DNA of 64,000 bases, taken from assembly GCA_000091205.1 (NCBI GenBank), contig AP006500.2, one strand, 5' to 3'. A model generated the notes under the pieces. The model saw only the letters and a list, made by a program, of their open reading frames with translations, made no database searches and was not told where the DNA came from. A program made the position numbers and the translations under genes. This DNA is from Cyanidioschyzon merolae. Lineage: Eukaryota. Positions 1 to 59,537 of this stretch are shown in pieces. Every line of letters starts with the position of its first letter. Positions within the stretch are counted from its first letter, which is position 1.

Positions 1-1663
1 AGCAACGGCGGTCCAAGACCAGCGGCCGCTAGCTCTGCATACAAGCTGTTCTCCCGGCGACGGTTAAAAAAGTCACCGGAGCCAAAGATTCGAACGAGAA
101 CCGCGGTGCCGGTAACTGTACTTGTACACCGGTACATTCGGTTCGTAACCCCACCCTGAACTCGCTCCACCGTGCAACACGAGGGCGCCCAGGCGTTATC
201 TGAGAAGAGCTGCCCAAGGACTAGCAGCACCTCACGTTCCTCTGCCTCGGTAGCTCGAGCGGCCTGCGTCGCCAGTTCCACGTCTCGTCGCTTGACTTCA
301 CCCCCCGCATCTTCAAGGGTTTGCAGCACCATTCTACGCACGGTGGCTAAGCATTCGCTTCAGAACAGCGATGCTCTGCCTGTTCTTATGCTCCGAGGCA
401 GTTCAACGTCTACTCGGCTATTGTGCTGGTCAACTCGAGCCGAGCCCTTACCGTTCAGGAAGATCCTGTGAACTGAGAAAACGATCTGAGACGTTGGGAA
501 ATTCTGCGCGCGGCGCCGACGCTGCGTTTCAGGCGAAGTCGCAGCAGCAGCAGCAGCCGTAGTAGTCGTAGTTTGCGGATCTCGATTGAACCATCGAAGC
601 TCGCATGGTCGTCAACAATGTCTACATCTGAGCAGCTGCAGTATTCGATAAATATCGAGTCTCAATGACGAATACATCTTACGATACCGCAGTTCCTTTT
701 CGTGACCGCAAAATCGAGGTTTTCTCTGCGCTGTATCGGCGGAGGCTGGTATTGCATCAGCTCAGAGGCTTCGCGCTCGGTGGCAACGGTTACGACAGAG
801 GGCAAGGAGAGGATCCGAACAGCCCATGCACGCTCCGGGAATGGTAGTCTTGCTTCATTGCAGCATAAAGCACCATCGTCTCACTGGTTGTTTCGGACTG
901 GGCAGCGTTGACGACACCTGCAGAAATGGACGGACGATCCAGACCGCCAGCGAAAAGAGCTTCGATCTGCGCACAGAGCCTCGTACTGCAGGGCATGATC
1001 GACCGAAAAGCAACCCACCTGCTCCGAGAATGGACCCGGGTTCGATTCATGTCCATCGCTAGAAAGCTGTTACGGATCGCGGTCCGCTCGTCATGCAATC
1101 GTTTCCGAGCTGATCGGCAGCTGAGCTGCGGGCGTACGCAAGGCCAGACTCCATCGCAACCTGTCGATACCGCCACGGACCGACGAGGCGCTTGCGGCAC
1201 CGTTGCAGGCGCTTTTACCAGCCTCGGCAGCCGCAGCATCGTTTGAACGGAGCACGATCTCCGAAGACAAACCTGGTTTGTGGTTCATTGAACGAAGACG
1301 TCTCGGAAGGCGGCGTGGCGGCCTCGCTGGATACCCATCATATCTCACGCACTCGTCGATGCCCGCGCCAGCGCATCGGTCCACCAGAATCATCAGCATT
1401 TGCAGCGCGTTGCATCTGACACGTATATAGGTATCAAACTGTCCATATCTATACAATACAGTAGCACTTGCATGGCGCCCCGGCACCGCACCACCCGCAT
1501 CGCTGGACGTGCCGCAAACGCCGCGTCGCGATCGCTCCCGCGATGCGCGATCGGGGCTGATGCGTGCACCACTGCTCCGCGCATCCATGCGGTTGCCGCG
1601 TACGCATTGCTTCTCGCACAACGACGAGAGACTTTGCTCCCGAGGGAGCTGCGCACGTAGGCA

Positions 1664-3199
1664 ATGACGTTCGTGACGCTACCACTCTGTGCAAGCAGAA
1701 GCGTTGTACCTAGCTTGAAGTGTGCTGCCTGTCGGCGCGGAAGTCGTTTAGGGCTTGGCGGCCGATTAAGGTCGAAGCTGCGTTCCTCCCCTGGCTCGTC
1801 GTCTCTGAGGTGCCTGCAACCTAACGGGACACCTAGTGCAGGGCACCAGGGAAATAAAGCAGGAAATGTGAACACTTTTGGTAAAACTGTTCTTGTTCTT
1901 GGGGGGGATGGATTTTGTGGCTGGCCGACCGCTCTCCATCTGTCAGATCTGGGGTACAGTGTCGTAATTGTCGACAACTTGTCGCGGCGCAAGATCGATA
2001 TCGAGCTGGAGTGCGAGTCCTTGACGCCTATTGCGGCACCGAGCGAGCGCATCGCTGTTTGGAATGCCTTGTCCGATCGCGAGATTCGCTTTGAGTTTAT
2101 GGACGTTGCTCATGAGTACTGGCATTTGTTGGAGCTCATCAAAAGGGAGCAACCCTGCGCTATCGTGCACTTTGCGGAACAGCGGGCTGCACCGTACAGC
2201 ATGAAAGGGAGCCGCCAGAAACGCTATACAGTTGATAACAATGTGAACGGCACCATGAGCGTGCTGACAGCGGTCGTGGAGTCCAACCTGGATATCCATG
2301 TTGTTCACCTGGGCACCATGGGCGTCTACGGCTACGGCTCCAGTGGCGGCAAGATTCCCGAAGGCTACCTCGATGTCGTGCTGCCCTCCGGAGAGCGCCG
2401 CTCGATCCTGCATCCAGCCTACCCGGGGAGTGTCTATCACGCCTCCAAGTGTCTCGATGCGCTGCTGTTTCAGTTCTTTGCAAGGAATGATGGGCTTCGC
2501 ATAACGGATCTGCATCAAGGCGTCGTTTGGGGCACGTTCACCCAGAATACCATGCGCCATGAGCTCTTAATGAATCGTTACGACTACGACTCCGATTACG
2601 GCACCGTGTTGAACCGCTTTTTAATGCAAGCTGCATGTGGGCTGCCTCTTACGGTTTACGGAAGTGGTGGGCAGACTCGAGCCTTTATTCATATTAGCGA
2701 TACGTGCAAGTGTATCGCACTTGCGCTAGCAAATCCGCCTAATCGCGGCGATCGTGTCAAGATCTACAACCAAGTCGCAGAGACACATCGCGTGCGCGAC
2801 CTCGCGGCTCTTGTCGCCCGGAAAACGGGCGCCAGTGTGCACCAAATTCCCAATCCTCGGAACGAGGCCTCCGAGAACGAACTCGATGTGAGCAACCAGA
2901 ATTTTCGTTCGCTTGGCTGGGACCCTGTCACACTGGAGGAGAGTCTGCTCGAGGAGGTGGTTGGTGTCGCGGAAAGATATCGGCATCGCATTCGCCGTGA
3001 CAAGGTCATGCCCAGCAGCTTCTGGAACCGGGAGCGAGAAGAGGCGTGTCGCGCGAATGCGACAAACTCGAGCGACGCACTAGCCGAGATATCGGCTGCG
3101 GCGAGTTCCGAGTGGCGTGATGAGGTGTTAAAGCAGCTGGCCAATGGTGACGACAAGAAACTCGAGCGTATGCGCTCGGCGCTGCGAGATGAACCCTAG
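1664..3199 (+). CDS. SQD1: UDP-sulfoquinovose synthase (SQD1), NAD-dependent epimerase/dehydratase family, with a Ser/Arg-rich N-terminal extension of about 70 aa (putative plastid transit peptide)
   Basis: ATG at 1664, TAG at 3197-3199. Rossmann motif VLVLGGDGFCGWPTALHLSDLGYSVVIVDNLSRRKID. The ORF is collinear with plant and cyanobacterial SQD1/SqdB over its whole length (HLGTMGVYGY, YHASKC catalytic YxxxK, VYGSGGQTRAF). The first ~70 residues have no homologous counterpart and are rich in S, R, L, G. Confidence 0.85.
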   Translation: MTFVTLPLCASRSVVPSLKCAACRRGSRLGLGGRLRSKLRSSPGSSSLRCLQPNGTPSAGHQGNKAGNVNTFGKTVLVLGGDGFCGWPTALHLSDLGYSVVIVDNLSRRKIDIELECESLTPIAAPSERIAVWNALSDREIRFEFMDVAHEYWHLLELIKREQPCAIVHFAEQRAAPYSMKGSRQKRYTVDNNVNGTMSVLTAVVESNLDIHVVHLGTMGVYGYGSSGGKIPEGYLDVVLPSGERRSILHPAYPGSVYHASKCLDALLFQFFARNDGLRITDLHQGVVWGTFTQNTMRHELLMNRYDYDSDYGTVLNRFLMQAACGLPLTVYGSGGQTRAFIHISDTCKCIALALANPPNRGDRVKIYNQVAETHRVRDLAALVARKTGASVHQIPNPRNEASENELDVSNQNFRSLGWDPVTLEESLLEEVVGVAERYRHRIRRDKVMPSSFWNREREEACRANATNSSDALAEISAAASSEWRDEVLKQLANGDDKKLERMRSALRDEP

Positions 3200-4789: not shown

Positions 4790-5455
4790 TGCAGATACCA
4801 GTATGAAGAGGCGCGAAAAGTCATTCCAGGAACCGGCCTTGAATACCCGAACATCCACCATACCAGAATGAAGAGGCACGAAAAGTCAGAATGGTAGTGT
4901 GCCCTATGTACCCGAACATCCACCACACCAGATTGAAGAGGCACGAAAAGTCAGAATGGTTATGTGCACTACGCACCCGAACATCCACCATACCAGTATG
5001 AAGAGGCACGAAAAGTCATTCCAGGAACCGGCCTTGAATACCCGAACATCCACCATACCAGAATGAAGAGGCACGAAAAGTCAGAATGGTTATGTGCACT
5101 ACGCACCCGAACATCCACCATACCAGTATGAAGAGGCACGAAAAGTCATTCCAGGAACCGGCCTTGAATACCCGAACATCCACCGATACCAGAGTGAAGA
5201 GGCACGAAAAGTCAGAATGGTTATGTGCACTACGCACCCGAACATCCACCATACCAGTATGAAGAGGCACGAAAAGTCATTCCAGGAACCGGCCTTGAAT
5301 ACCCGAACATCCACCGATACCAGAGTGAAGAGGCACGAAAAGTCAGAATGGTTATGTGCACTACGCACCCGAACATCCACCATACCAGTATGAAGAGGCA
5401 CGAAAAGTCATTCCAGGAACCGGCCTTGAATACCCGAACATCCACCGATACCGAA
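4790..5455. repeat. Tandem array with higher-order structure: 130-131 bp unit made of two alternating 65-66 bp subunits sharing the core atgaagaggcacgaaaagtca, about 10 subunits, ending at the G6PD start codon
   Basis: Direct reading: ccagtatgaagaggcacgaaaagtcattccaggaaccggccttgaatacccgaacatccaccatac alternates with cagaatgaagaggcacgaaaagtcagaatggttatgtgcactacgcacccgaacatccaccatac. The 131-bp unit starts at about 4993, 5123, 5254 and 5384, with a variant copy from about 4798. Confidence 0.9.
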
Positions 5456-7369
5456 ATGCAGCGCGACGCGTCCAGGAAAAAATCGCGGCGATATCGAGGC
5501 ATCCGTTGCGTACAAGCAGGTGGAGGTCGCTCTCCAGGAACGATGTTCGTAGCTTTACCAAGTGTGCTGTTCACCAGCAAACCCTCAAGGATACGTACTG
5601 TTAAGATTGAAAAGCGTAGAACGTTATTTGCCTGCGACAGGGCGAAAGCAGGCACCGATGGGAACGCTAGCAACGCTGCGGCGTCAGCACCGAAACCCTC
5701 TGCTGCGAGCAGCGGGCGATCTGCTGGTACTGCAGCTCGAGACCAGGTAACGATCAGTGCCCAGACGAGTTCGTCAAACTCGCGGACGATAGATCGAAGC
5801 ACCGATTCATCGCAAACAGTACAGGTTGCGTCCATGTTTGACTCGATGACGAAGCGCCGTGAGGCTGCTCGCCGCGAGGCGCTGAGCATCGTCGTGCTGG
5901 GCGCGTCCGGGGATCTGGCCCGCAAGAAGACGCTCCCGGCGCTTTTCTCACTCTACTACCACGATCTGCTGCCGAGCGACTTTTATGTGGTCGGCTACGC
6001 ACGATCAAACATGACGAGCGAGGCGTTCCGGAACACGATCAAGTCAAGTTTGACCTGCCGCGTTATCGAAGGCCCCGAGTGCGCACGCAAAATGGAGCAT
6101 TTCCTCTCGCGTTGTTTCTACGTTTCCGGAACTTATCATGAAACTACTGCATTCCGAACGCTGGACGAGTTTCTCGTGAACGAGTTTGAGAAAGAGCGCT
6201 GGAATCGCGGGGTTCCGACCAATCGCCTCTACTACTTGGCGATTCCTTCCAACGTCTTCGCTGAGGCCTGTCGCGGCATCGCCCATGCCCACACCAAGCC
6301 TCCGGAGTCGACCAAGGGCTGGATGCGGGTCGTCTTGGAGAAACCGTTCGGGAGAGATCTGGATACCTTCCAGACCCTGCACCAGGAACTGCAATTGTAC
6401 ATTAGCGAGGAACAAACCTTCCGCATTGACCATTACTTGGGCAAGGAGCTCGTTCAGAACGTGCTGGCGCTGCGCTTTGCGAATTATTTTTTGGAGCCTC
6501 TCTGGAACAACCAACACATCCAATCTATCCAGGTGACGTTCAAGGAGAACTTTGGTGTCGAGGGACGCGCTGGCTACTTTGACCAGTACGGAATCATCCG
6601 CGACATCATGCAGAATCACCTGCTGCAAATGGTGGCGCTCTTTACGATGGAACAGCCGGCTTCTTTGAACGCCGAAGATATTCGTGACGAGAAAGTGAAA
6701 GTCTTGCGCAGTTTGGAAACGCTACGTGCTACAGATTTCGTCATCGGGCAGTATATGGGGTATCGGGAGGAAGACGGCGTTCGTCCGGGCTCCAAGACGC
6801 CTACGTTTGCAGCGTGTCGGATGAACATTCGAAACCGACGCTGGGACGGTGTACCGATCCTGGTCAAAGCGGGGAAGCATTTGGATGAACGCCTCGCGGA
6901 AGTGCGTGTCACGTTCCGCAGTGTGCCTGGTAGTATTTTCTCGCTTGCGAATACCCTGCCGAACAATGAGCTTGTTGTTCGCGTTCAGCCCGACGAAGCC
7001 ATTTATCTTCGCATCGTCAGCAAATCCCCGGGGTTGACCTCTCGCCTAGAAGAGGCGCGTCTGACGCTATTCTACCGGACGGCCTGGGAAGAAGCGCACG
7101 ACATTCCCGATGCCTACGAGCGCCTCATCTTGGACGTCATCTATGGTGACAAATCGCTCTTCATACGAAGCGATGAATTAAAAGTCGCCTGGGAGAAGTT
7201 TACGCCGGCGCTTCACGAACTCGAGCAGAGCGACCGCTATCGACCGGTACCGTACGTAGCGGGCAGTCGCGGCCCTGCCGAAGCCGACTACCTTGCCGCG
7301 CGCTACGGATGCGTTTGGGCCAGCGACCTTGACATTGGCGGCAAGCGACTGCAAAGCAAGGTGCCGTAA
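5456..7369 (+). CDS. G6PD: Glucose-6-phosphate 1-dehydrogenase, plastidic redox-regulated type (C-x7-C regulatory cysteine pair), with an N-terminal presequence
   Basis: The track ORF 5225-7369 runs back through the tandem repeat, so I take the first ATG after the repeat (5456, MQRDAS) as the start; ATGs at 5543 (MFVALPSVLF) and 5834 (MFDSM) are alternatives. Dinucleotide-binding motif VVLGASGDLARKKTLPALF, active-site RIDHYLGKE, EKPFGRD. LTCRVIEGPECARKMEHFLSRCFY matches the thioredoxin-regulated cysteine pair of plant plastidic G6PD (LTCRIDKRENCGxKMEQFLKRCFY). TAA at 7367-7369. Confidence 0.85.
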   Translation: MQRDASRKKSRRYRGIRCVQAGGGRSPGTMFVALPSVLFTSKPSRIRTVKIEKRRTLFACDRAKAGTDGNASNAAASAPKPSAASSGRSAGTAARDQVTISAQTSSSNSRTIDRSTDSSQTVQVASMFDSMTKRREAARREALSIVVLGASGDLARKKTLPALFSLYYHDLLPSDFYVVGYARSNMTSEAFRNTIKSSLTCRVIEGPECARKMEHFLSRCFYVSGTYHETTAFRTLDEFLVNEFEKERWNRGVPTNRLYYLAIPSNVFAEACRGIAHAHTKPPESTKGWMRVVLEKPFGRDLDTFQTLHQELQLYISEEQTFRIDHYLGKELVQNVLALRFANYFLEPLWNNQHIQSIQVTFKENFGVEGRAGYFDQYGIIRDIMQNHLLQMVALFTMEQPASLNAEDIRDEKVKVLRSLETLRATDFVIGQYMGYREEDGVRPGSKTPTFAACRMNIRNRRWDGVPILVKAGKHLDERLAEVRVTFRSVPGSIFSLANTLPNNELVVRVQPDEAIYLRIVSKSPGLTSRLEEARLTLFYRTAWEEAHDIPDAYERLILDVIYGDKSLFIRSDELKVAWEKFTPALHELEQSDRYRPVPYVAGSRGPAEADYLAARYGCVWASDLDIGGKRLQSKVP

Positions 7370-7973
7370 AAACCAGACAGTCCGACTTCCGCCTAGTCTG
7401 GATCGGAGGAGTTTCCAGATGCCCTGGCGATTCCCGAATCCCGGTCGGCGCCTACGAAGCCTACCATCAAGCCGGGCATGCACCGCGAGTAGTCGACGCG
7501 CACAACGCGCTCTACGAAAATCCAAAAGCTCGCGGCACCAGCACTTTACAGCCACAAAACTTGTCTCATGAAAGCGGCGAATAAAACCTCTGTCATCGTC
7601 ATCTGTGAATGTACGGGTGAGGCATCGCGGATCGCGCAGCACAGAACACCTCCACGAGATACACCAGTGAATCGTCGCGATAGCACGTCCGGCTGTGATC
7701 TTTTCGGATACACACACAAGACATGCACTGATGGATTCGCTCAGCGGATACCGCTCGACATGCAATGCCCAGTGCCTGCATCCATTCGTGAACGACGCTC
7801 ACACCTGCACTACGCAACAAGCATCAGCGAGACTTGCGATTCGCCACGCAAAGGATGTACCCGCATTGCCGAAATCGTAGCCGCTATCAAAGTGCAGCGT
7901 TCAACGCATGAAAAACGACTCCGCAATTCCAGTCTATCCTTTTGCTGCATCAACAGTCTCGTTTCGGAAGCGA

Positions 7974-9527
7974 TCAAGCAGGTTTGAAGAATGCCCGAGC
8001 GAGCTGGCGGCGCAGCCAGCGCAGCCACGAGAGCGATCGCGGCAAGCCGAGGCCTCCAAGTGCTCGGAAACGAAAATTGTTCATCGCTCGATTGTACTGC
8101 ACATTGCGGATCCAGGCGGTTGCAGCACACCAACTCCAGCGCTCCGCCTCGCGACGAGCAGCGTCGCCCATCCGTTTGCGCATGACGGCATCGCCGAGTA
8201 GGGCACATACATAGGTTGCAGCCTCGCTGGTGTTGCCCTTGGTGTACAGAAATCCTGTCTCGCCGTGAACAATCAGATCGGGGATACCGCCAGCTGCTGT
8301 GGCAACTACAGGCACACCCGATGCCATGGCCTCCAGTACCACAAACCCAAGGGTTTCGCTCTCTGAGGGCATCACAAATACGTCGGCACAGGCGAATGCT
8401 CGCGATAAATCATCGCCGTGTAGTTGTCCGGTCATGACCACGGGCAGACCTGCGAAATGTCGCCGTACCGTCTCGGCGTACGGTCCGTCACCGACGAAAG
8501 CGAGTCGCGTTCCGGGTGGACAACAGGTGAGGATCCGCTTCAAACTCAGCAGATTCTTCTCGGCACCGAGTCGCCCGATGTAAACCAGCAGCGGCGCGGT
8601 AGGATGGCCATCTGTGAGCCGCGCCCGCATCGCACCACCATCATCGTTGCGGAAACGCGGATGGAAGCGCTCCGTGTTGATGCCTTTTCGCCAGAGGTCC
8701 ACGCGCTCGATGCCGTGTTGTCGAAGTTCTGCGCATATCTGTGGAGACGTCGCCAGCGTCAGGTCTGCGCGATTCAAACAGAAACGCATGAGTGTCCACG
8801 CCAGTCCTATGAGAATCCCTAACCCATAAGTTTTCGCATACATTGGTAGATGTGTGTGATACGATGCAACAAGTGGCTTGCGCAGAACACGCGCCATGAG
8901 AAGGATGGCAAATACCAGGAATCCGGGTGTTGCCAAGTGGATGAGGTCAGGATCGAACTCGCGAACGCGCTGCAGCAAACTGCGCCTTCCGAAAACCATG
9001 CCACTACCAAAGCCGATTGAGAGCGTAATGCGTGGATAGAGTGCAAACTTGAAACCCCGGATGGTTATAACCGGATAACCGAACACTTCTTGCGGTGCGT
9101 CCGGCGAGTTATCGGGGGTTATGATCAATACCTCGTCGCCGGCCTCTTTCAAATACCGTAATAGCTCATTAAAACGATTCGAATACCCGGACACGTGCGT
9201 GAACGGCGTCGGTTCAACCACGAGACACACTCGACGCCGAGGCGCGCGCCGCAGGTCAACGAGGTTCGGGTCATCGCCCGACGTCGGCTGCGGGTACACG
9301 GGACCAGTGGCGACACTCGCCAGTGCGAACGCGCAGCTCGTCCGCGGTACACCCGGTGCCCGCAGCCGGACTGGCGCATAGCGTCGCCTCAAGAGAGCAA
9401 CCTCTAAGGGACACAGCTGCGAGCCGTTTGATGGCGCGCTCTGCCGCCTCAACGTCCGCGCGCACGCGAAAGCGCCAGTGTCCCCGTTGTTAACGCCCAG
9501 GAATGCCGCTGTTCGACCAGTGAACAT
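7974..9527 (-). CDS. SQD2: Sulfoquinovosyldiacylglycerol synthase (SQD2), GT4 glycosyltransferase, with an N-terminal presequence of about 95 aa
   Basis: ATG at 9527 (reverse complement of cat at 9525-9527). Strong collinear identity to plant SQD2: VVEPTPFTHVSGYSNRFNELLRYLKEAGDEV, DLIHLATPGFLVFAILLMAR, SYHTHLPMYA, FVGDGPY, ADVFVMPSESETLGFVVLEAMASGVPVVATAAGGIPDL, and the GT4 EX7E region. The N-terminus is Arg/Ala/Pro-rich. Confidence 0.85.
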   Translation of the reverse strand: MFTGRTAAFLGVNNGDTGAFACARTLRRQSAPSNGSQLCPLEVALLRRRYAPVRLRAPGVPRTSCAFALASVATGPVYPQPTSGDDPNLVDLRRAPRRRVCLVVEPTPFTHVSGYSNRFNELLRYLKEAGDEVLIITPDNSPDAPQEVFGYPVITIRGFKFALYPRITLSIGFGSGMVFGRRSLLQRVREFDPDLIHLATPGFLVFAILLMARVLRKPLVASYHTHLPMYAKTYGLGILIGLAWTLMRFCLNRADLTLATSPQICAELRQHGIERVDLWRKGINTERFHPRFRNDDGGAMRARLTDGHPTAPLLVYIGRLGAEKNLLSLKRILTCCPPGTRLAFVGDGPYAETVRRHFAGLPVVMTGQLHGDDLSRAFACADVFVMPSESETLGFVVLEAMASGVPVVATAAGGIPDLIVHGETGFLYTKGNTSEAATYVCALLGDAVMRKRMGDAARREAERWSWCAATAWIRNVQYNRAMNNFRFRALGGLGLPRSLSWLRWLRRQLARAFFKPA

Positions 9528-10199
9528 TCACCGCCACCAACACCAACACCAGCTGAAGCAACGATACCAACAACAGTTCTATAGTCTGCACGAGAGCGAC
9601 TCTACCTGTCTGTAGCCTCCTTGTGTTGAAGGGTACGCGTTAGCGCCCGTTGGGCCGCCACCGCATCGGCAACGCGCCCCAAGCGTGAGGGCTTGTCCAG
9701 CGAATTACATGCCCACAACACCGCGGCTGCAGGCGATGCGCATCGAATCTTGCTGCCGATGCGCTGTCATATTTTGTTCGATAACGAAATTCGTTTATAT
9801 CGACGCTGGATCCTAGATTGCGGGATGGGTATTCGTAATCGCAAAAGCATCCATTATGATGCAGTTACCCCCAAGTTCCATTATTCGTACTTCATTTCGG
9901 ATATGCTGGTCGGTTTGCACGTTCAGTCGTGCACCTAACCTGCCCTGATCGTCCGCGATAGCGCCTATACCGCTGGAGCAGATCTTTCATAGAGGCAGAG
10001 CGGCGTTGCGATTCCACTGAGGGTAATGGCTCGAGGCGCGGCTCACCGTACACGGAATCGGAGTAGCGAATCATTCTGGGCGCCTGCGAGCCGCGCAGAG
10101 AGACGTACTTTCTGCGACAGCGCGAAGCGATATACTAAGAGTCCACCGCTACCGAGGCGACACCAAGACGCAGCCTAACTGCCCCTAATCCCAGAACAA

Positions 10200-12119
10200 A
10201 CTGCGTTACGGACGAGTTGCTCAGATTTGGCCACAACATAGGGAAACGGAGCGATAGCCTGGCATGCTCGTCCGACTCGTGGGGCCTTCCGTCTAAAAGG
10301 TAAACTTTCGACAATACCGAAATCTTTTCCCCTTTTTGACGTTTATCGTAGATGGTAAAAGGAATTTTTTATCGTTGCAAGTGAGTGGTTAGTCTCTGTC
10401 CTTTGTTCTACATAGTGCGGTCGATACGCGTACCTCCATATCTAGCAGGCATGAGATACGACGTGCATCTTGTCGCTACAGGGAATAGCGACCCTCACCG
10501 TTATCGTATTGATGGAATATACAAGTTGCATTTGCGTAACAGCCGTACCAAAATGCAAGGTTTCCATTCAGTTGTGTTTCAACCCTCAAGTCAGTGTACT
10601 CATGTGATTTTTTTCCGGTTTATATCAGAAGCGTTCAAAGTGCGTTCTTTTTCAGAAAGAAATAAGAAAGGAAAGTTGTCGAAATGGAAGTGGAGGATCC
10701 CGAAGGCCCTGGGTCACCACCTGGCAGAAAAAACGAAAAAAAGTGCCGCGCGAAGAGGAACAGGAGAATACCAAGGAGCGAACATGGACGCCCCACGTCA
10801 CAAGCTGTCTGAATCGAGAACTCGAACGCAAGGCGGAGATGGAGCTGGGTGTCGAAAAAATGAAGAGTCCGTGGAACGGAAGACTGCGCTTCTCGGGAAG
10901 CGATTCGACGCCGTTCCGTGATATGCAACATCAAGTGGCACTCTGCGACCATCGACTCCAGTGTCCGTCATGGCATTATGAGGGAGACCAGCTCCGAGTT
11001 CGATGTAAGCAACAAGGAATTCACAGGTGAAAACCGGGAGACGTACTGGAAGTATATCGTAGACTTGAAACGTCTCGAAACGGGCAAGAAAAGGCATCCA
11101 CGGAGACGATCGAAACCGATGGTGTAGCCATGTGTGTACGCTATCGGCGGTCGAAGGCAGATCGTCCTGGTCCGCCTTCGATATCGCCCTCGGGGAAGCA
11201 TGAAGAAAAGGAAATGGCAGATCCTAGGATGCAGGAGGTGCAGGAGAGCGACTTTGTTGTTGGCGCGGACCCTGGGGCTACGAACATCGTAACCATCGCA
11301 GTACCCAAGCGTGCGGAAAATGGCATTCGCGGCAACTTGCATCAGAAAGATATGCGTATTTTGAGGTTCTCGAGAGCGAGATACTATCGAGAATCGGGAA
11401 TCATGAATACGAGGAAGAAAATCGAGACATGGAATGCAGGAATGAATGAGCACCAGGAAGCTATGAGCCAGGTGACGAGCCGAGGAGCGGACTGTCGAGC
11501 TTTTCGGGAGTTCATGGAAGTTCGTGTTGCCCATTGGGATGCGCTGTGGGAGGAGTATACCAAGCCCCGGTGGGCTCGTTTGCGTATGAATCTATACGGT
11601 GGGAAGCAGCGGGCCTTTACGAATTCTTTCAATCAGTTGAGTGCCCTGAAGGAGGATGAGAGTCAGGGGCTCGTAGTAGCGTACGGGGCAGGGCGATGGA
11701 AGACCCAAAAAGGGACTACGCCAGCTCCAACGACGAGAACGTGTAAGGAGTGCGCACGGCGTTTTGTTACAATACCGATAGATGAGTTCCGAACGTCCTA
11801 TACACACCATGAGCTGGGGTGTACGCTTCAGAGAGTGGAGATGGAAAAGCGCCAAAGGAGTCCTGAGGAAATCGCAAAGTACGGACCGCTGACGGAGGAG
11901 CAAATGGAAAGGAGAGCGAAAGTTCGAGGATTGCTTGCATTAGTAAGTACAACCAACGATGGCAAGAAACGTATGGAGTTTGTGAACCGAGAATTCAATG
12001 CCGCTATGAATATCAGGAGATGTGCGCTGTTGGAGAATAGACCTCCGGAGTCGACAAGAGGGAACTTGTTGGACAACCTCTCAAAGTGGAACTATATGAG
12101 AAAAAATTGGAAGAAGTAG
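10200..12119 (+). mobile_element. AT-richer island carrying a TnpB/Fanzor-like (OrfB_Zn_ribbon, RuvC-fold) transposon-associated nuclease gene; upstream part fragmented across three reading frames (introns or decay)
   Basis: Composition drops visibly (about 48-50% GC against about 60% in flanks) from about 10.2 to 12.1 kb. Adjacent ORFs in three + frames (10385-10921, 10743-11030, 10918-11127) precede the main ORF 11130-12119. The main ORF carries the RuvC-I GxDxG motif ([12 protein letters not shown]), a zinc ribbon (TCKEC...HHELGC) and a RuvC-III-like NAAxNI motif ([13 protein letters not shown]). Confidence 0.5.
11130..12119 (+). CDS. TnpB/Fanzor-like RuvC nuclease homolog (C-terminal RuvC-I, Zn-ribbon and RuvC-III segment); the canonical catalytic Asp of RuvC-III is replaced (DRDxNAAxNI becomes [10 protein letters not shown]), so it is possibly inactive or domesticated
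   Basis: ATG at 11130. Motifs [67 protein letters not shown]. Basic C-terminal tail. The stop TAG at 12117-12119 is followed in the same frame by a 457-codon ORF. Confidence 0.45.
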
Positions 12120-13493
12120 TTGGTGGCCCGTCGAGAAAGACGGGGAGGCGTCCGCACACCAGTTGGCGACGCTATATCTAACACGCGTTCGCCGCCACTA
12201 CTGTACACCGCTGGCGACTGCTTGCGACCTTTGAAAAGCTTTCGGTCGACACGAAACACCCCTAAAAGGCGATACCGTACATCCCTAAGCAACTCGATAA
12301 AAGATTTGCAACCTCCCAGCGCACGCATGCTTCGGTACAGCTTCATTAACGCCGTCTGGCCGTCCAAGTCATGCGGCAGGGTCCACGTTGAGCGCCATCG
12401 AAAGCAGAAGACACAGTCTGTACAAACTGCACAGCGCTGGAAACTGCGGGCGAACTTGAACCGGCGAGGTCCAGACTCAGCGACCTGGGATCGGCAGGGC
12501 GGTGGCCAGGCGGAGCGCCTGCTTATGGAGCAGGTACTGCAACTGAGGCGAGAGTTAGATGCCTTGCGAGCGGAGAATGAGAGTTTGCGTAAATATCGTG
12601 TCAACGAGCACCTGCTCGTGGATGCCGACGACTCTGTCACAACCGAGGACGGACGGACGCGTTGCGGCAAGCACGGGGAGCGCTCGCGCTATTTACCGGT
12701 CTATTCAGTCGCCCCTGAAGAGGTTCTAAGCCGCGTCATCCCCGTCATTGGACCTAACCCAACGATCGAGCAACTCGACGCAGCAATCACGCTGTCGTTC
12801 CAAGTACGCGATGAGCTGGTGAACCGACGTGGGCTCGAGCGTTACGAGGATGTCATGGCTGGTCGATTCCTCGTGTTCCAGACCAGTGAACTACCTGTCA
12901 AGGGGGTCCAGAGAGTCGCCCTTCCTGGTACGGTAGGATCGATGCGCTGGGCGTCGGCACCAGTTGGTATCCTGATGCCTGCCTCCGAGCTGGGACTGGA
13001 GTCCTTCTACCCGAACGCTCCGACGGATGTCAACTGTCTTGTCATTATCGAGGCTGATTTCGATTCAGAGATCCCCGCGGATACCCTGGCATCACCTGAC
13101 ATCATTCGCGACATCCGAGACGGTACCAAAGACGTGCTCGACCGTATCGAAAACGTTTGGTTCGACGAGCAAGGCCGCGCGTCTCGCGATGCCGGCTTTC
13201 CGAGCTCGCTCACTGAAGAGACAGAAACCGACGAGGACGAGCAACCAGACGAAAACGGTGACGGACCGGAATTCAGTCCGGGGAAATTTTACCTCTGGCT
13301 GGAGGAGAGGCCTCCGCAGGGCGTCGAGTCCGGCGAGGAGCCAGCCCACAGGTGGCACGTTCGCTGGTATGAGCGTCGTCCAGACCCCGCGGTTGACGGT
13401 GTGGAATGCGTTGGCCGCGTGATTACCGTGATAGCACCGAGCGCTTCAAGGCGTCGCACCAAGACGTTTGCCGAAGAGGACGATGTGTTCTAA
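12120..13493 (+). CDS. Hypothetical protein (coiled-coil segment LMEQVLQLRRELDALRAENESLRKY, acidic DE-rich C-terminal region). It is in the same frame as the upstream TnpB-like ORF; the first in-frame ATG is at 12327
   Basis: A 1374-nt stop-free frame at about 60% GC is far longer than chance allows. No recognisable domain. The track start is a TTG; ATG at 12327 (SARMLRYSF). Confidence 0.4.
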   Translation: MVARRERRGGVRTPVGDAISNTRSPPLLYTAGDCLRPLKSFRSTRNTPKRRYRTSLSNSIKDLQPPSARMLRYSFINAVWPSKSCGRVHVERHRKQKTQSVQTAQRWKLRANLNRRGPDSATWDRQGGGQAERLLMEQVLQLRRELDALRAENESLRKYRVNEHLLVDADDSVTTEDGRTRCGKHGERSRYLPVYSVAPEEVLSRVIPVIGPNPTIEQLDAAITLSFQVRDELVNRRGLERYEDVMAGRFLVFQTSELPVKGVQRVALPGTVGSMRWASAPVGILMPASELGLESFYPNAPTDVNCLVIIEADFDSEIPADTLASPDIIRDIRDGTKDVLDRIENVWFDEQGRASRDAGFPSSLTEETETDEDEQPDENGDGPEFSPGKFYLWLEERPPQGVESGEEPAHRWHVRWYERRPDPAVDGVECVGRVITVIAPSASRRRTKTFAEEDDVF

Positions 13494-28599: not shown

Positions 28600-29810
28600 C
28601 GTACAGTGCTGGTGCGAGACGCCCGGAGCGTTCCATGCGGTGGGAAACGTCCCCGCCGCCTCCTCCTCCTCCTCGTGCACACAACCGACACCGCCAAAGC
28701 ACAAAGCGTGAAACGTGATCACTGGTACGGAATAGCGTCAACACTGGGTGCTTGTTCATGGATGGGCTATGGACGGTGGTCCCGGGCAGTGCCGTGCGGT
28801 GGGAAACGTCCCCGCCGCCTCCTCCTCCTCCTCGTGCACACAACCGACACCGCCAAAGCACAAAGCGTGAAACGTGATCACTGGTACGGAATAGCGTCAA
28901 CACTGGGTGCTTGTTCATGGATGGGTTATGGACGGTGGTCCCGGGCAGTGCCGTGCGGTGGGAAACGTCCCCGCCGCCTCCTCCTCATCCTCCTCCTCCT
29001 CCTCGTGCACACAACCGACACCGCCAAAGCACAAAGCGTGAAACGTGATCACTGGTACGGAATAGCGTCAACACTGGGTGCTTGTTCATGGATGGGCTAT
29101 GGACGGTGGTCCCGGGCAGTGCCGTGCGGTGGGAAACGTCCCCGCCGCCTCCTCCTCATCCTCCTCCTCCTCCTCCTCGTGCACACAACCGACACCGCCA
29201 AAGCACAAAGCGTGAAACGTGATCACTGCTACGGAACAGCGTCAACACTGGGTGCTTGTTCATGGATGGGTTATGGACGGTGGTCCCGGGCAGTGCCGTG
29301 CGGTGGGAAACGTCCCCGCCGCCTCCTCCTCATCCTCCTCCTCCTCCTCGTGCACACAACCGACACCGCCAAAGCACAAAGCGTGAAACGTGATCACTGG
29401 TACGGAACAGCGTCAACACTGGGTGCTTGTTCATGGATGGGTTATGGACGGTGGTCCCGGGCAGTGCCGTGCGGTGGGAAACGTCCCCGCCGCCTCCTCC
29501 TCATCCTTCTCCTCCGCCTCGTGCACGCAACCGACACCGCCAAAGCACAAAGCGTGAAACATGATCACTGGTACGGAACAGCGTCAACACTGGGTGCTTG
29601 TTCATGGATGGGTTATGGACGGTGGTCCCGGGCAGTGCCGTGCGGTGGGAAACGTCCCCGCCGCCTCCTCCTCATCCTCCTCCTCCGCCTCGTGCACACA
29701 ACCGACACCGCCAAAGCACAAAGCGTGAAACGTGATCACTGGTACGGAATAGCGTCAACACTGGGTGCTTGTTCATGGATGGGTTATGGACGGTGGTCCG
29801 GGTGCAAACC
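28600..29810. repeat. Tandem minisatellite, about 7 copies of a 159-174 bp unit containing a variable (CCT)n tract, immediately upstream (about 140 bp) of the RRM-protein start codon
   Basis: The unit ggtggtcccgggcagtgccgtgcggtgggaaacgtccccgccgcc(tcc)n tcgtgcacacaaccgacaccgccaaagcacaaagcgtgaaacgtgatcactggtacggaatagcgtcaacactgggtgcttgttcatggatgggttatggac recurs with period 159, 159, 171, 174, 170, 172 bp. The track ORFs 28525-29901 (+) and 28466-28918 (-) are translations of this repeat. Confidence 0.9.
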
Positions 29811-36189: not shown

Positions 36190-36520
36190 CCGGGCGACAC
36201 AATGCATCCATCGATGAATGCCGGGAAGTATCGTCCAATAATATTCATTATTGACGCAATTTTCGAAGCAACCCGACACAATGCATCCATCGATGAATGC
36301 CGGGAAGTATCGTCCAATAATATTCATTATTGACCCAATTTTCGAAGCAACCCGACACGATGCATCCATCGATGAATGCAAGGAAGTATCGTCCAATGAT
36401 ATTCATTATTGACCCAATTTTCGAAGCAACCCGACACGATGCATCCATCGATGAATGCCGGGAAGTATCGTCCAATAATATTCATTATTGACCCAATTTT
36501 CGAAGCAATCCCCTGCGGGA
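36190..36520. repeat. Tandem array, 4 copies of an 81-bp AT-richer unit containing two near-palindromes, about 150 bp upstream of the NusG-like ATG
   Basis: Unit gacacRatgcatccatcgatgaatgccgggaagtatcgtccaataatattcattattgacccaattttcgaagcaaccc repeated from about 36193, 36276, 36356 and 36437. Near-palindromes: gcatccatcgatgaatgc and aataatattcattatt. Confidence 0.9.
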
Positions 36521-53104: not shown

Positions 53105-53830
53105 CATCATTAAGGTCATCATCACCATCATCATCAGCGATGCCTCTGTTATGATATACATCATACTACATTGATAATCATCATCTTCATCATCATCGTC
53201 AGCGATGCCTCTCATATTCCATACATCATTATACATTGATAAGCATCATTATGGTCATCATCATCATCTTCTTCTTCTTCATCAGCGATGCCTCTCATAT
53301 TCCATACATCATCATACATTGATAAGCATCATTATGGTCATCATCATCATCTTCATCTTCTTCTTCTTCTTCGTCCGCGACGCCTCTCATATTCCATACA
53401 TCATTATACATTGATAAGCATCATAATCGTCGTCGTTAACATCATCATCATCATCTTCTTCTTCATCAGCGATGCCTCTCATACTCCATACATCATCATA
53501 CATTGATAAGCATCATTATGGTCATCATCATCTTCTTCTTCTTCTTCGTCCGCGATCCTCTCATATTCCATACATCATCATACATTGATAATCATCATAA
53601 TCGTCGTCGTTAACATCATCATCATCATCTTCTTCTTCATCAGCGATGCCTCTCATATTCCATACATCATCATACATTGATAAGCATCATTATGGTCATC
53701 ATCATCATCATCTTCTTCTTCTTCTTCTTCGTCCGCGACGCCTCTCATATTCCATACATCATTATACATTGATAAGCATCATTATCGTCGTCGTTAACAT
53801 CATCATCTTCTTCTTCTTCAGCGATAACCG
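53105..53830. repeat. Tandem array of about 8-9 units (about 80-100 bp), each = (CAT)n/(CTT)n microsatellite + agcgatgcctctcatattccatacatcatYatacattgataagcatcatta; each unit carries a GATA-type motif (TGATAAG); the array ends about 200 bp upstream of the S2P protease ATG
   Basis: Direct reading. agcgatgcctct recurs at about 53126, 53200, 53283, 53369 (variant), 53463, 53539, 53643 and 53733. Track ORFs in this interval (MPLIFHTS...HHHH) are translations of the repeat. Confidence 0.88.
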
Positions 53831-57886: not shown

Positions 57887-59537
57887 GAACGCGATGCCTC
57901 GGCACCAGGTGTGTCGCCTGTACGGAAGCAGCGCGACCACGGCGCTGGTGTGTGTGTGTGTGAACGCGTGCTGGCCCCCAGGCCGTACAGCAACTCGCCA
58001 CGGCACGCCAGTTCTGCCCAGAAACAGCCCGAGCACAAGAGTCTACGCTTTCTATCGCCGGGGTCTTCCTGCAAACGCTCCGCACGGAACGCTGAACCAA
58101 TGTAGGTCGTGCATCCGCAGCCGAGAAATGTGCGGGGAAATGGGTGTGCGTCAGCAGCTGCGACCGTGCCCCGGACCTCCAGCATCGCTCTATTCATTTC
58201 TACTCTGAAAGAGAAGAACTGTAAAGGATATCGTTTATCGAGATCGGGACTCGTTTCGTATAGAACCTGCGACGCGAACTGCGTACTCGGTATGCCACCC
58301 GCTTCATGGAGCACACCTGGGCCTTCTGCGTAGCACCACACGTACAAGAGCACAGAGCAAGGCGCCACTTGTGATGAATGCTGGGATGCAATCAGTCCGA
58401 ACGCTCAAATGATGACGGCAGCTGCTCGCGTCGAATTCCAGGAATCAGACGTGAAGGAGAAGATGATGACCGTCCATTTCGCTGCAGAGGAAGCGTCCGC
58501 GCTCGACACCGTGCAGGGATGCGTTCTGGGGCGCATTCGAGAGCGCAGCAGCTACCGATGTGCAGCTATCACTCGCGATAGAAACGTTTCATATCCTGGG
58601 AGGGTATGTATATACCCACTCGGAGACGACTCCCAGCCTTTCTTGACTGGCCACCATCAACCGGTTTCGGTTCATCAAGGCACACTTCGAGGGTTAGGGA
58701 CTGCCTCACAAAGTTGGATCGTGGCAGCTCCGCGGATGTCGACTTCAACACCATACACGTTCTGATATTCATGGCGGCATAAAGTCTCGGTTCACGGACT
58801 CCATGCGTTTGTTGCCTCTACTCAAACTCACCATTGCTAGGATTCCTCAAATACGTGTCCTTTGAGCCACTAGAATCCCGTCATCGTCCTGTCGGGCAAA
58901 CAACACTCCTCTTCTATCTCCGCTCTTCGACCTCTTCTTCATACCTAGATCGTCGTCGCGCCCTATAGTCGGCGAGTAGAGGATTTTATCGTTTTGTTTT
59001 ATACCATCCGACGATAACGTGTCTCCGGGATCCTCGACCTGCATATCCATGACTTTCCCCTGTGTTTTTATGTCCTCAAATCAACGCTCTTCGAAAACGC
59101 CTGCTATGAACCGAGGAAAAGCATTTCGGTGACACGCACCTTGGAATTGGAACGCAATTGAGATGAAATGCCATGATATACAGGTTTATACAGGATTGAT
59201 GAACCCAGTTGCTTCTGCTGGGAAACGCAGGTGCTCGACGAGACGTCATCGCCACCTGAAGACAACGTCATTTTTCAAAAACTAGGCTCCAGTTTGGGCA
59301 GACGCATTATTTCAACAGGACTTGTGTGCGCTTGGGAGTAGACGGAACGCTTTCGAGCACTTGGGACGGGAGCGCTTTACGGGTGCGTCCGAGGTCATAC
59401 TTCCAGTCGTGCGCGTCGCTACGAAGCAGGCGAGCGCTTGGCGGCAGGAGTCTTCGTGGAGGTGGTGCTTCGTCTCGAATAATCTCGAGACTACAAAGAC
59501 GTTAATACGCTGGTTTGAACCTGGACAGCTCCAACTC

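Follow-up and report, generated by a model that had tools for sequence, protein, structure and literature searches.

The closest described relatives of the sequence analyzed here are the repeats of the family CMe-1A, a Fanzor1-carrying family known in the genome of Cyanidioschyzon merolae since 2013, with approximately 150 copies that are about 80% identical to a consensus of 3169 bp (PMC3627910). The consensus encodes a single-exon Fanzor1 protein of 734 aa, listed as 734 (1) in supplementary table 1 of the same study, and has no terminal inverted repeats (TIRs); a target site duplication (TSD) was not established for the family, and the 5′ 635 bp of CMe-1A correspond, according to Bao and Jurka, to the element TE-N2_CMe (PMC3627910). 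In Fanzors, the canonical RuvC-II Glu is replaced by Gly or Pro with a compensating Glu further downstream, and the fRNA originates from the 3′ noncoding region adjoining the right end (PMC10530073). The active site of SpuFz1 consists of D383/E541/D606 (PMC10432273).

An intact CMe-1A encodes a single-exon 734-aa Fanzor1, a eukaryotic homologue of TnpB. By analogy with characterized relatives, this protein would act as an RNA-guided double-strand DNA endonuclease whose guide RNA is transcribed at the 3′ end of the transposon. The active site is a rearranged RuvC triad of the Fanzor type, formed by Asp in GADPG, by Gly at the canonical RuvC-II position together with a compensating Glu in the DEFRTS motif, and by Asp in NRDxNAAxNI. 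No report of RNA-guided DNA cleavage by CMe-1 was found in the literature searched.

The whole stretch of DNA that was analyzed, here called the window, covers 64 kb of C. merolae 10D. With a probability of approximately 0.93, its segment 9779-12239 is one fixed, nonfunctional copy of CMe-1A. The identity, anatomy, lesions, and neutrality of this copy are documented below, and the coordinates of its parts are given in Table 1.

Position and limits of the element

The gene SQD2 was identified at 7974-9527 on the minus strand by an exact match to BAM82305.1, and the gene downstream of the element corresponds to BAM82306.1; there is therefore no annotation between the two, and the copy is unannotated in the reference genome. 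The sequence-only reading, an earlier examination of the bare letters, was correct in this respect, but not in regarding such a sequence as uncommon, given the number of family members already described (PMC3627910). The annotated start of CMR017C lies 88 bp past the end of the element in the same orientation, and SQD2 is 252 bp away from its 5′ end.

Alignment by blastn with the CMe-1A consensus, taken from supplement 2 of PMC3627910, gave two segments, namely, consensus 1-1037 at 9779-10807 with 78.5% identity and consensus 1736-3168 at 10808-12239 with 86.3% identity. The AT-richer island noticed earlier between SQD2 and the next gene does exist, with a GC content of 0.498 at 10200-12119 and 0.51 over the full element versus 0.566 for the window, which places the element at the 1.7th percentile among windows of the same length; its limits were misplaced, and the real unit is the one aligned with the consensus. 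When the copies are compared, conservation seems to continue past the ends of the published consensus by approximately 12 nt at the 5′ end (T-rich) and 7 nt at the 3′ end (TTTGTTG), and about 12 nt before 9779 and 7 nt after 12239 may also belong to the element.

Table 1 Features of the CMe-1A copy and of a second remnant in the window
Feature	Coordinates	Strand	Basis
Internally deleted CMe-1A Fanzor1 element, full extent by the published consensus limits	9779..12239	+	blastn of consensus
5′ module equivalent to TE-N2_CMe (consensus 1-635)	9779..10403	+	coordinate mapping
Noncoding leader of the Fanzor unit (consensus 636-905)	10404..10677	+	consensus alignment
Remnant of Fanzor1 codons 1-44 with three small indels	10678..10807	+	consensus alignment
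Junction of the 698-bp internal deletion (consensus 1038-1735, codons 45-277, N-terminal part)	10807..10808	+	abutting blastn segments, junction sequence
Frameshifted remnant of codons 278-374; indels at consensus 1783, 1849, 1919/1922, and 2016	10808..11129	+	
329-aa ORF, RuvC half; start is an internal Met (consensus M375)	11130..12119	+	
RuvC-I Asp, D47 of the ORF, D431 of CMe-1	11268..11270	+	invariant in 61-sequence clade alignment
Gly186 (AYG), canonical RuvC-II position, Fanzor-type rearranged site	11685..11687	+	invariant column
Alternative RuvC-II Glu, E219 in IDEFRTS	11784..11786	+	invariant column
RuvC-III position, Glu288 (GAA) here, Asp (GAC; D672 of CMe-1) in the family	11991..11993	+	polymorphic among orthologous copies
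1-bp deletion, codon 697; moves the natural C terminus to another frame	12066..12066	+	
Natural C-terminal coding remnant, CMe-1 residues 697-734 and stop, frame 2	12065..12181	+	tblastn, translation
3′ noncoding tail with terminal hairpin-capable sequence	12182..12239	+	alignment of 31 copies
Second, much older CMe-1A remnant, CMe-1 residues ~620-728, with stops and frameshifts	58617..58942	-	

The equivalence of the 5′ module with TE-N2_CMe follows from the alignment to the CMe-1A consensus and the statement of its authors (PMC3627910); in other CMe-1A copies, the TE-N2_CMe-like module is absent or inverted. Neither TIRs nor TSDs were found in the window copy, and its two ends are not linked by any pair of inverted or direct repeats. 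A second full CMe-1A copy, considered at a composition dip at 30 to 32 kb, was rejected; the only other match in the window is the remnant at 58.6 to 58.9 kb.

An alignment of 31 copies showed conservation of the 3′ tail, and the scaffold of a guide RNA (fRNA/omega-RNA) would, by analogy with relatives, end within it. RNAalifold predicted only a weak 5-bp hairpin in the tail, the terminal hairpin in its two registers did not exceed shuffle controls (82/500 and 15/500), and the Rfam search of 9400-12700 gave no match.

Fanzor1 homology and motifs of the ORF

The ORF of the sequence-only reading and its motif strings are present in the order described: GADPG at aa 45-49 (11262-11276), CKEC at aa 205-208 (11742-11753), IDEFRTS at aa 217-223 (11778-11798), HHELGC at aa 226-231 (11805-11822), and the 10-residue RuvC-III string at aa 286-295 (11985-12014). 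Translation of the window in six frames contains the signature NAAxNI a single time. Motifs in this combination are far from a chance occurrence, and assignment to the RuvC nucleases of the TnpB/Fanzor lineage was borne out by matches to published Fanzor1 sequences and by profile matches to solved structures. The ORF matched Fanzor1 proteins of Volvox carteri in phmmer (VCa-2, E = 5e-13; VCa-1, 6e-5), and the family profile matched chlorophyte Fanzor1 in hhalign with 98.7% and 99.9%. Searches of PDB with the ORF by phmmer and with a profile of its close homologues gave no match; a broader clade profile was required, which matched 9cf0 (5.6e-20), 8gkh (6.4e-12), and 9cer (2.8e-6). The Fanzor1 identity of the copy is thus independently supported at the level of sequence comparison. 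The AlphaFold2 model of the ORF with 39 close homologues reached a pLDDT of 43 and a pTM of 0.27 and was uninformative; the RuvC fold is therefore predicted from sequence profiles only.

Residues D47, G186, and E219 are invariant across 61 diverse relatives, in at least 90% of which D288 is also conserved. Among the CMe-1A copies, the RuvC-I position is Asp in 85 of 95, and the RuvC triad is kept in about 85 to 90% of approximately 95. G186 and E219 are 33 residues apart, and E219 corresponds in the alignment to the DEYKTS motif found in SpuFz1 and in chlorophyte Fanzor1. The earlier view that both Asp residues are replaced at RuvC-III held for the acidic residue, where the change from Asp to Glu is specific to the copy, but not for Asn, which is the normal residue of the family (consensus NRDFNAAINI) at a position of N-R-D that varies among Fanzor1 proteins. 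The RuvC-III catalytic Asp is thus present in the family and missing from the window copy.

The proposed CxxC...HHxxxC zinc ribbon was not confirmed. CKEC in the window copy is a Tyr-to-Cys change, the family consensus being YKEC and the orthologous contig L012 still carrying Tyr; the CxxC is a recent accident and not a conserved motif, and the zinc ribbon is degenerate throughout the CMe-1 lineage. Scanned against Pfam, PF07282 included, neither the ORF nor the fragments upstream of it nor a set of seven long homologues gave a relevant match. PF07282 reached E = 0.51 with the CMe-1 consensus, covering the RuvC-III tail only, and also missed VCa-1, while it detected the control Fanzor1 CVu-1 at 5e-11; the ORF has no Pfam match because its zinc ribbon is degenerate or lost. 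The spacing between the supposed ribbon and RuvC-III, previously counted as 46 residues, is 57 (C231 to E288). PF26935.1 was flagged on the longer homologues.

Short motifs brought together by chance in an unrelated ORF would agree with the missing Pfam match, the missing phmmer match in PDB, and the poor structure model. The probability of this reading is nevertheless negligible, given the 86% DNA identity to a published Fanzor1 element, the VCa-2 match, the profile matches to three solved Fanzor1 structures, and the positive control, according to which the Pfam result reflects the lost zinc ribbon.

Lesions and neutral divergence of the copy

The ancestral ATG was changed to GTC at 10678-10680, and a new ATG is found at 10684. 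About eight small frameshifts were counted in the N-terminal remnant and one more at codon 697, past which the ORF is out of frame; the orthologous contigs L011 and L012 are without this last deletion. The N-terminal half, presumably the WED/REC region, is lost or frameshifted in the window copy and present in the family consensus. The decay is uneven, with approximately 8 indels in the 413 bp of the N-terminal remnant versus no indel and no stop in the next 977 bp, and only 1.5% of purely neutral simulations stayed free of stops; taken alone, this pattern could suggest a conserved RuvC half.

The ORF fragments seen earlier upstream on the plus strand do exist (10385-10921, 10743-11030, and 10918-11127), and the frameshifted remnant directly preceding the ORF is the source of fragments in other frames. 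Homologous peptide segments in three plus-strand frames might be taken for exons of an intact Fanzor gene with introns between them, but the changes of frame are 1- to 2-bp indels in a collinear DNA alignment without any intervening sequence, the 698 bp of coding sequence is missing in comparison to the single-exon consensus, and the ancestral ATG is mutated. C. merolae also has very few introns, which was counted against this reading. With the published CDS consisting of a single exon (PMC3627910), a multi-exon gene is extremely improbable.

The window copy is approximately 12% diverged from the consensus, and comparison of the ORF with the consensus gave a dN/dS of 0.21, with 24/29/63 differences by codon position. 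The picture was different among four orthologous population contigs, where divergence of the ORF was 1.1 to 1.7%, compared to 1.1 to 1.6% in the noncoding parts of the element, 1.6 to 2.0% in intergenic sequence, and 0.06 to 0.26% in SQD2. The ORF variants among orthologs comprise 8 synonymous, 14 nonsynonymous, and 1 nonsense change, a ratio that fits neutrality (P = 0.21) and rejects an omega of 0.21 (P = 0.03) in a test based on 23 variants taken from metagenome contigs. Chimeric assembly or gene conversion involving other copies may account for some of these variants; in contig L002, a clear switch to a different copy is seen near 11800. The premature stop W136* is present in L002, L010, and L012, residue 288 is polymorphic with Asp in L011 and L012, and the frameshift at 12066 and the stop codon at 12117-12119 are polymorphic as well. 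An explanation of the open ORF by selection on the window copy was rejected, as the ORF diverges like noncoding DNA and its variants fit neutrality.

These data bear directly on the possibility that the locus encodes a domesticated or catalytically altered mini-Fanzor, i.e., a 329-aa RuvC-only protein with Glu at RuvC-III, expressed and kept for a host or regulatory function. Such a role would be in line with the 990-bp ORF remaining open despite its divergence from the consensus, the low dN/dS over 977 bp without indels, Glu as a conservative and potentially metal-binding substitute, and the presence of the copy in all five orthologous haplotypes sampled. It is, however, very unlikely, since the ORF diverges among orthologs at the rate of noncoding DNA, 10 to 20 times that of SQD2, the ratio of nonsynonymous to synonymous variants is the neutral one, three contigs carry the nonsense change, and E288 segregates with the ancestral Asp. 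Furthermore, the N-terminal part to which the sequence-only reading assigned WED/REC, for guide RNA and DNA binding, is deleted or frameshifted, the ATG of the ORF is an ancestral internal Met, and the C terminus is frameshifted. Expression of the ORF in 10D as an N-terminally truncated, Glu-substituted RuvC-only protein acting in trans on CMe-1 copies or guide RNAs, e.g., in a dominant-negative or titrating manner, is just as doubtful. Of the two fates proposed earlier, the decaying copy is the one that stood; the neutral ORF and the premature stop in orthologs contradict the other, and the copy is a dead transposon passenger and not a domesticated gene.

Exaptation of the DNA itself, with the protein dead and the element providing a promoter or 5′-untranslated region to CMR017C or SQD2, was considered somewhat less improbable, though still unlikely. 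The position and orientation of the element agree with it, as do its presence at the site in all sampled population contigs (no empty-site contig was found among the population loci retrieved) and the reading frame of the ORF, which is that of CMR017C with read-through in one haplotype. Against it stand the neutral-rate divergence along the full element, including the 3′ end, and the one-in-three chance of an in-frame placement.

The history of the nonfunctional copy can be summarized as follows. Codons 45-277 and the start codon were lost, and frameshifts were gained in the N-terminal part and near the C terminus, leaving an internal-Met ORF of 329 codons that spans the RuvC half; in strain 10D, the RuvC-III Asp was converted to Glu in addition (GAC to GAA). 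Purifying selection acted during most of the divergence of the ORF from the consensus, which took place in the active source lineage; since its insertion the copy has been drifting neutrally. The ORF is still open because its divergence mostly predates the insertion and because it was picked for ORF length from approximately 150 copies.

The outcome is negative but useful: the copy is one among approximately 150 decayed family members, no sign of function is seen in its altered catalytic motif or its open frame, and a report of the locus as a new or domesticated Fanzor would be unwarranted. The points of possible use to specialists in Fanzors and transposons concern the family: the large clade to which CMe-1 belongs (1,329 clusters at 50% identity) no longer has a zinc ribbon and for the most part escapes Pfam, it keeps the rearranged D-G-E-D active-site positions, nearly intact CMe-1A copies occur in wild Cyanidioschyzon populations, and the published ends appear slightly too short.

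Comparison with known systems

The system nearest to the window copy is CMe-1A itself (Bao and Jurka 2013, Mobile DNA 4:12; consensus in Repbase), from the same genome, with 78 to 86% DNA identity at both termini, within the range of about 80% typical of the family. The same protein, the lack of TIRs and TSDs, and the TE-N2_CMe-like 5′ module are common to both. In comparison to the consensus, the copy has the 698-bp deletion, a lost start, about nine frameshifts, and the Asp-to-Glu change at RuvC-III.

The solved Fanzor1 proteins, namely, SpuFz1 (8GKH), Parasitella parasitica Fz1 (9CF0), and Guillardia theta Fz1 (9CER), share with CMe-1 the RuvC-I Asp, the RuvC-II Gly with Glu in D-E-[FY]-[RK]-T-S, and N-R-D...N at RuvC-III. 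In contrast to their CxxC...CxxC, the CMe-1 lineage has H-H-x3-C and one Cys followed by a helical insert of approximately 45 aa, and the window copy differs from them further in lacking the N-terminal half and in having Glu at RuvC-III. The closest named relatives by sequence are VCa-1 and VCa-2 from Volvox carteri, a green alga compared to a red one, with approximately 30 to 35% identity in the RuvC half. More distant are prokaryotic TnpB (IS200/IS605 and IS607) and Cas12f, which have a homologous RuvC nuclease core and a guide RNA encoded at the right end of the transposon. Canonical TnpB differs from CMe-1 in the RuvC-II Glu at its original position and in an intact zinc ribbon, and it is partnered with the transposase TnpA, whereas CMe-1A is without an associated transposase.

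A CMe-1A copy beside SQD2

The 329-aa ORF predicted by the sequence-only reading was present, together with the three upstream + strand ORF fragments, and a six-frame translation of the window contained NAAxNI once, inside this ORF. The neighboring GT4 glycosyltransferase was identical to SQD2 of C. merolae 10D (BAM82305.1), and the window therefore derives from Cyanidioschyzon merolae 10D. From SQD2 to the next gene, CYME_CMR017C (BAM82306.1, start 12327), the reference annotation holds no feature.

Fanzor1 family CMe-1A was described in the C. merolae genome by Bao and Jurka in 2013, with about 150 copies that match a 3169-bp consensus at about 80% identity, a single-exon gene for the 734-aa Fanzor1 CMe-1, no TIRs, undetermined TSDs, and a 5' 635 bp common to the repeat TE-N2_CMe (PMC3627910). 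The consensus DNA and protein from the supplementary files of PMC3627910 were aligned to the window and matched in two exactly abutting segments. The AT-richer island noticed earlier thus amounts to a CMe-1A copy of 2461 bp that has kept its two termini and has a 698-bp internal deletion, out of frame in itself, which takes out codons 45-277. Its GC of 0.51, against 0.566 for the window, falls at the 1.7th percentile for windows of that length. CMe-1A is a transposase-less element, and a search of this copy revealed neither TIRs nor TSDs. The window element is a real Fanzor1 sequence, an ordinary decayed and unannotated copy of a family published for C. merolae.

Coordinates of the window copy, its lesions scored against the CMe-1A consensus CDS (906-3110), ORF motifs found in the translation, and surrounding features
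Feature	Position	Strand	Remark
CMe-1A consensus 1-1037	9779-10807		78.5% identity
CMe-1A consensus 1736-3168	10808-12239		86.3% identity
ORF	11130-12119	+	329 aa, from internal Met (consensus M375)
Ancestral ATG to GTC	10678-10680	+	versus consensus
New ATG	10684	+	versus consensus
Small frameshifting indels	consensus 956, 1009, 1013, 1783, 1849, 1919/1922, 2016		versus consensus CDS
1-bp deletion	12066 (consensus 2994)	+	moves natural C-terminus to another frame
Natural CMe-1 C-terminus (residues 697-734)	12065-12181		readable in another frame
GADPG	ORF aa 45-49	+	
CKEC	ORF aa 205-208	+	
IDEFRTS	ORF aa 217-223	+	
HHELGC	ORF aa 226-231	+	
RuvC-III 10-residue motif	ORF aa 286-295	+	
SQD2	7974-9527	-	BAM82305.1
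Older CMe-1A remnant	58617-58942	-	CMe-1 residues about 620-728
Tandem array	53116-53819		65/92 bp
Tandem array	4795-5452		65/131
Tandem array	28659-29799		171/345
Tandem array	36195-36508		79

The ORF spans the sole indel-free stretch. The upstream fragments, for which intron-separated exons or a decaying copy had been considered, were collinear frameshift debris, which rejects the exons and bears out the decay. Indels and start-codon loss were concentrated in the N-terminal coding remnant (10678-11129; about 8 in 413 bp), with zero indels in the next 977 bp (11090-12065), the RuvC half. This clustering may be ascertainment, one long ORF having been chosen from about 150 copies. Alternatively, indel hot spots at A runs or a tract of gene conversion could lie behind it.

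The ORF stop (TAG, 12117-12119) is followed by a same-frame ORF with CYME_CMR017C (stretch 12117-13493). The annotated start of this gene, in like orientation, is 88 bp past the element 3' end (12240-12327), so its upstream region is largely transposon sequence. The second CMe-1A remnant in the window, small and much older, still reads ...SVNRDF..., with stops and frameshifts. The four intergenic tandem arrays, tabulated with their repeat periods in bp, showed no relation to CMe-1A; no other part of the window is as AT-rich (GC 0.38) or as strand-skewed as the one at 53.1-53.8 kb.

Fanzor1 homology and the active site

Pfam, including the OrfB zinc-ribbon profile PF07282, detected neither the ORF nor its long homologues, a PDB search with the ORF and with a profile of close homologues gave zero matches, and the AlphaFold2 model of the ORF was uninformative (pLDDT 43). 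The proposed TnpB/Fanzor lineage was upheld by other comparisons. The ORF matched the Volvox Fanzor1 proteins VCa-2 (E = 5e-13) and VCa-1 (6e-5; database size set to 10^6), and a profile of 39 family members matched a chlorophyte Fanzor1 profile at 98.7% probability, pairing IDEFRTS with IDEYKTS and NRDFNAAINI with NRDVSAANVI; one of those chlorophyte proteins matches SpuFz1 (8GKH) at 2e-6. In an alignment of 61 sequences, comprising the ORF and diverse full-length relatives at 26-44% identity, the only invariant ORF columns were D47, W101, G186, and E219, and R287, D288, N290, A292, N294, and I295 were at least 90% conserved. The resulting profile matched three solved Fanzor1 structures, 9cf0 (5.6e-20), 8gkh (6.4e-12), and 9cer (2.8e-6), and chlorophyte Fanzor1 at 99.9%. 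The Fanzor-defining rearranged RuvC-II has Gly or Pro where Glu is canonical and, farther downstream, a Glu that compensates (PMC10530073), an arrangement that G186 and E219 reproduce.

When 1.84 billion representatives were searched exhaustively with a profile, 1,329 clusters emerged. The large CMe-1 clade (representative proteins P0152-P0298, alignment A4) comprises 600-740-aa proteins in 1,329 clusters at 50% identity; it keeps the D, G, E, D active-site columns without a CxxC...CxxC zinc ribbon, and PF07282 misses 9 of its 10 tested proteins. More than 20 longer homologues bear the precomputed Pfam accession PF26935.1. As a control, Fanzor1 CVu-1 matched PF07282 at 5e-11; the CMe-1 consensus matched through its 11-residue RuvC-III tail alone (E = 0.51), and VCa-1 gave no match. 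The zinc ribbon is degenerate in the CMe-1 lineage, which accounts for the Pfam negative of the ORF.

The CxxC...HHxxxC zinc ribbon first described in the ORF did not hold, since CKEC is YKEC in the CMe-1 consensus and in the orthologous metagenome locus L012, and CxxC thus stems from a recent Tyr-to-Cys mutation. The spacer to RuvC-III is indeed long; it is a family feature, running from HHELGC. Of the two Asp thought to be replaced in RuvC-III, one is Asn in the family as a rule (F-V-N-R-D-F-N-A-A-I-N-I), and Asp to Glu (GAC to GAA, 11991-11993) is the sole RuvC-III Asp change peculiar to the window copy.

Neutral evolution of the window copy

Compared with the consensus, the indel-free block showed a dN/dS of 0.21, with 24/29/63 differences by codon position, and just 1.5% of neutral simulations remained stop-free across it. 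This pattern goes back to selection while the source lineage was active, as already noted by Bao and Jurka (PMC3627910). Orthologous loci were obtained from metagenomes via the identical SQD2 protein and a family scan, and four contigs (L001, L010, L011, and L012) had this element inserted at the identical site. Their divergence from the window was 1.1-1.7% in the ORF, 1.1-1.6% in element non-coding DNA, 1.6-2.0% in SQD2-element intergenic DNA, and 0.06-0.26% in SQD2. The ORF variants (8 synonymous, 14 non-synonymous, and 1 nonsense) fit neutrality (p = 0.21) and reject omega = 0.21 (p = 0.03). W136* (11537 G>A) occurred in L002, L010, and L012, the 12066 frameshift was missing from L011 and L012, residue 288 was still Asp in the same two contigs, and the ORF stop of L001 was TAC, with the frame continuing into the downstream ORF as a 787-aa read-through (fusion called by a gene caller, L001 6034-8397).

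With neutral-rate divergence and polymorphic lesions, the ORF is not under selection. A domesticated or catalytically altered Fanzor, one of two readings offered at first, is contradicted by these variants, and the other, a dead transposon passenger, agrees with them. The substituted catalytic motif is a mutation of recent origin, still segregating, in a pseudogene.

Metagenome locus L002 tracks the window locus up to about 11800; beyond this point (L002 about 7317-7720, window 11800-12208) it continues as another CMe-1A copy, about 15% divergent and with RD intact, and with other flanking genes (SPX-domain protein). Either the metagenome assembly is chimeric here or two copies have undergone ectopic recombination.

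Family organization and predicted activity

Copies at 80 related metagenome loci ranged from full-length ones of about 3.15 kb to many forms with independent deletions. Independent copies shared about 12 nt upstream of consensus position 1 (GAT and a T-rich stretch; window 9767-9778) and about 7 nt past position 3169 (TTTGTTG / TTYGGTG; window 12240-12246), so that the published ends probably stop slightly too early, or else the element strongly prefers certain targets. The shared core begins close to position 645, and alternative modules, including inverted TE-N2, lie 5' of it. A TE-N2-like module was inverted directly 5' of the Fanzor unit in L021 (2954-3573), L030 (1-619), L036, L056, and L058, and was missing from many other copies, where two or more different modules take its place on the 5' side.

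The 3' tail was conserved across copies; RNAalifold and explicit pair counting revealed no convincing structure in it, and Rfam gave no match. Its last 20 nt (12220-12239; alignment A3 columns 239-259) read CGTTTTTCTTTTGAAAGGCG in one subfamily variant and CGTTCGACTTTCGAACGGCG in another, both hairpin-capable; a few changes look compensatory, with pair counting not above shuffle controls. A coding tandem repeat with a unit of 22 aa (about KHEEKKEAxPATQEVQDNDLVVGA) stands immediately before RuvC-I in five homologous proteins (P0001, P0006, P0008, P0015, and P0022), from one unit in the window and consensus up to six or more.

About 85-90% of the roughly 95 copies retained each residue of the rearranged triad (Asp in GADPG, the Glu in IDEFRTS that compensates for Gly at RuvC-II, and the RuvC-III Asp). 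An intact 734-aa ORF was found at none of the 80 loci; the longest was a nearly full-length Fanzor1 of 722 aa on a metagenome contig (L036 3351-5519, +). The family may still include functional members in wild Cyanidioschyzon populations. By analogy with characterized relatives, transcription of the element's 3' end would supply a guide RNA for intact CMe-1 to bind, and the protein would cut guide-matching DNA beside a short adjacent motif (PMC10432273, PMC10530073).
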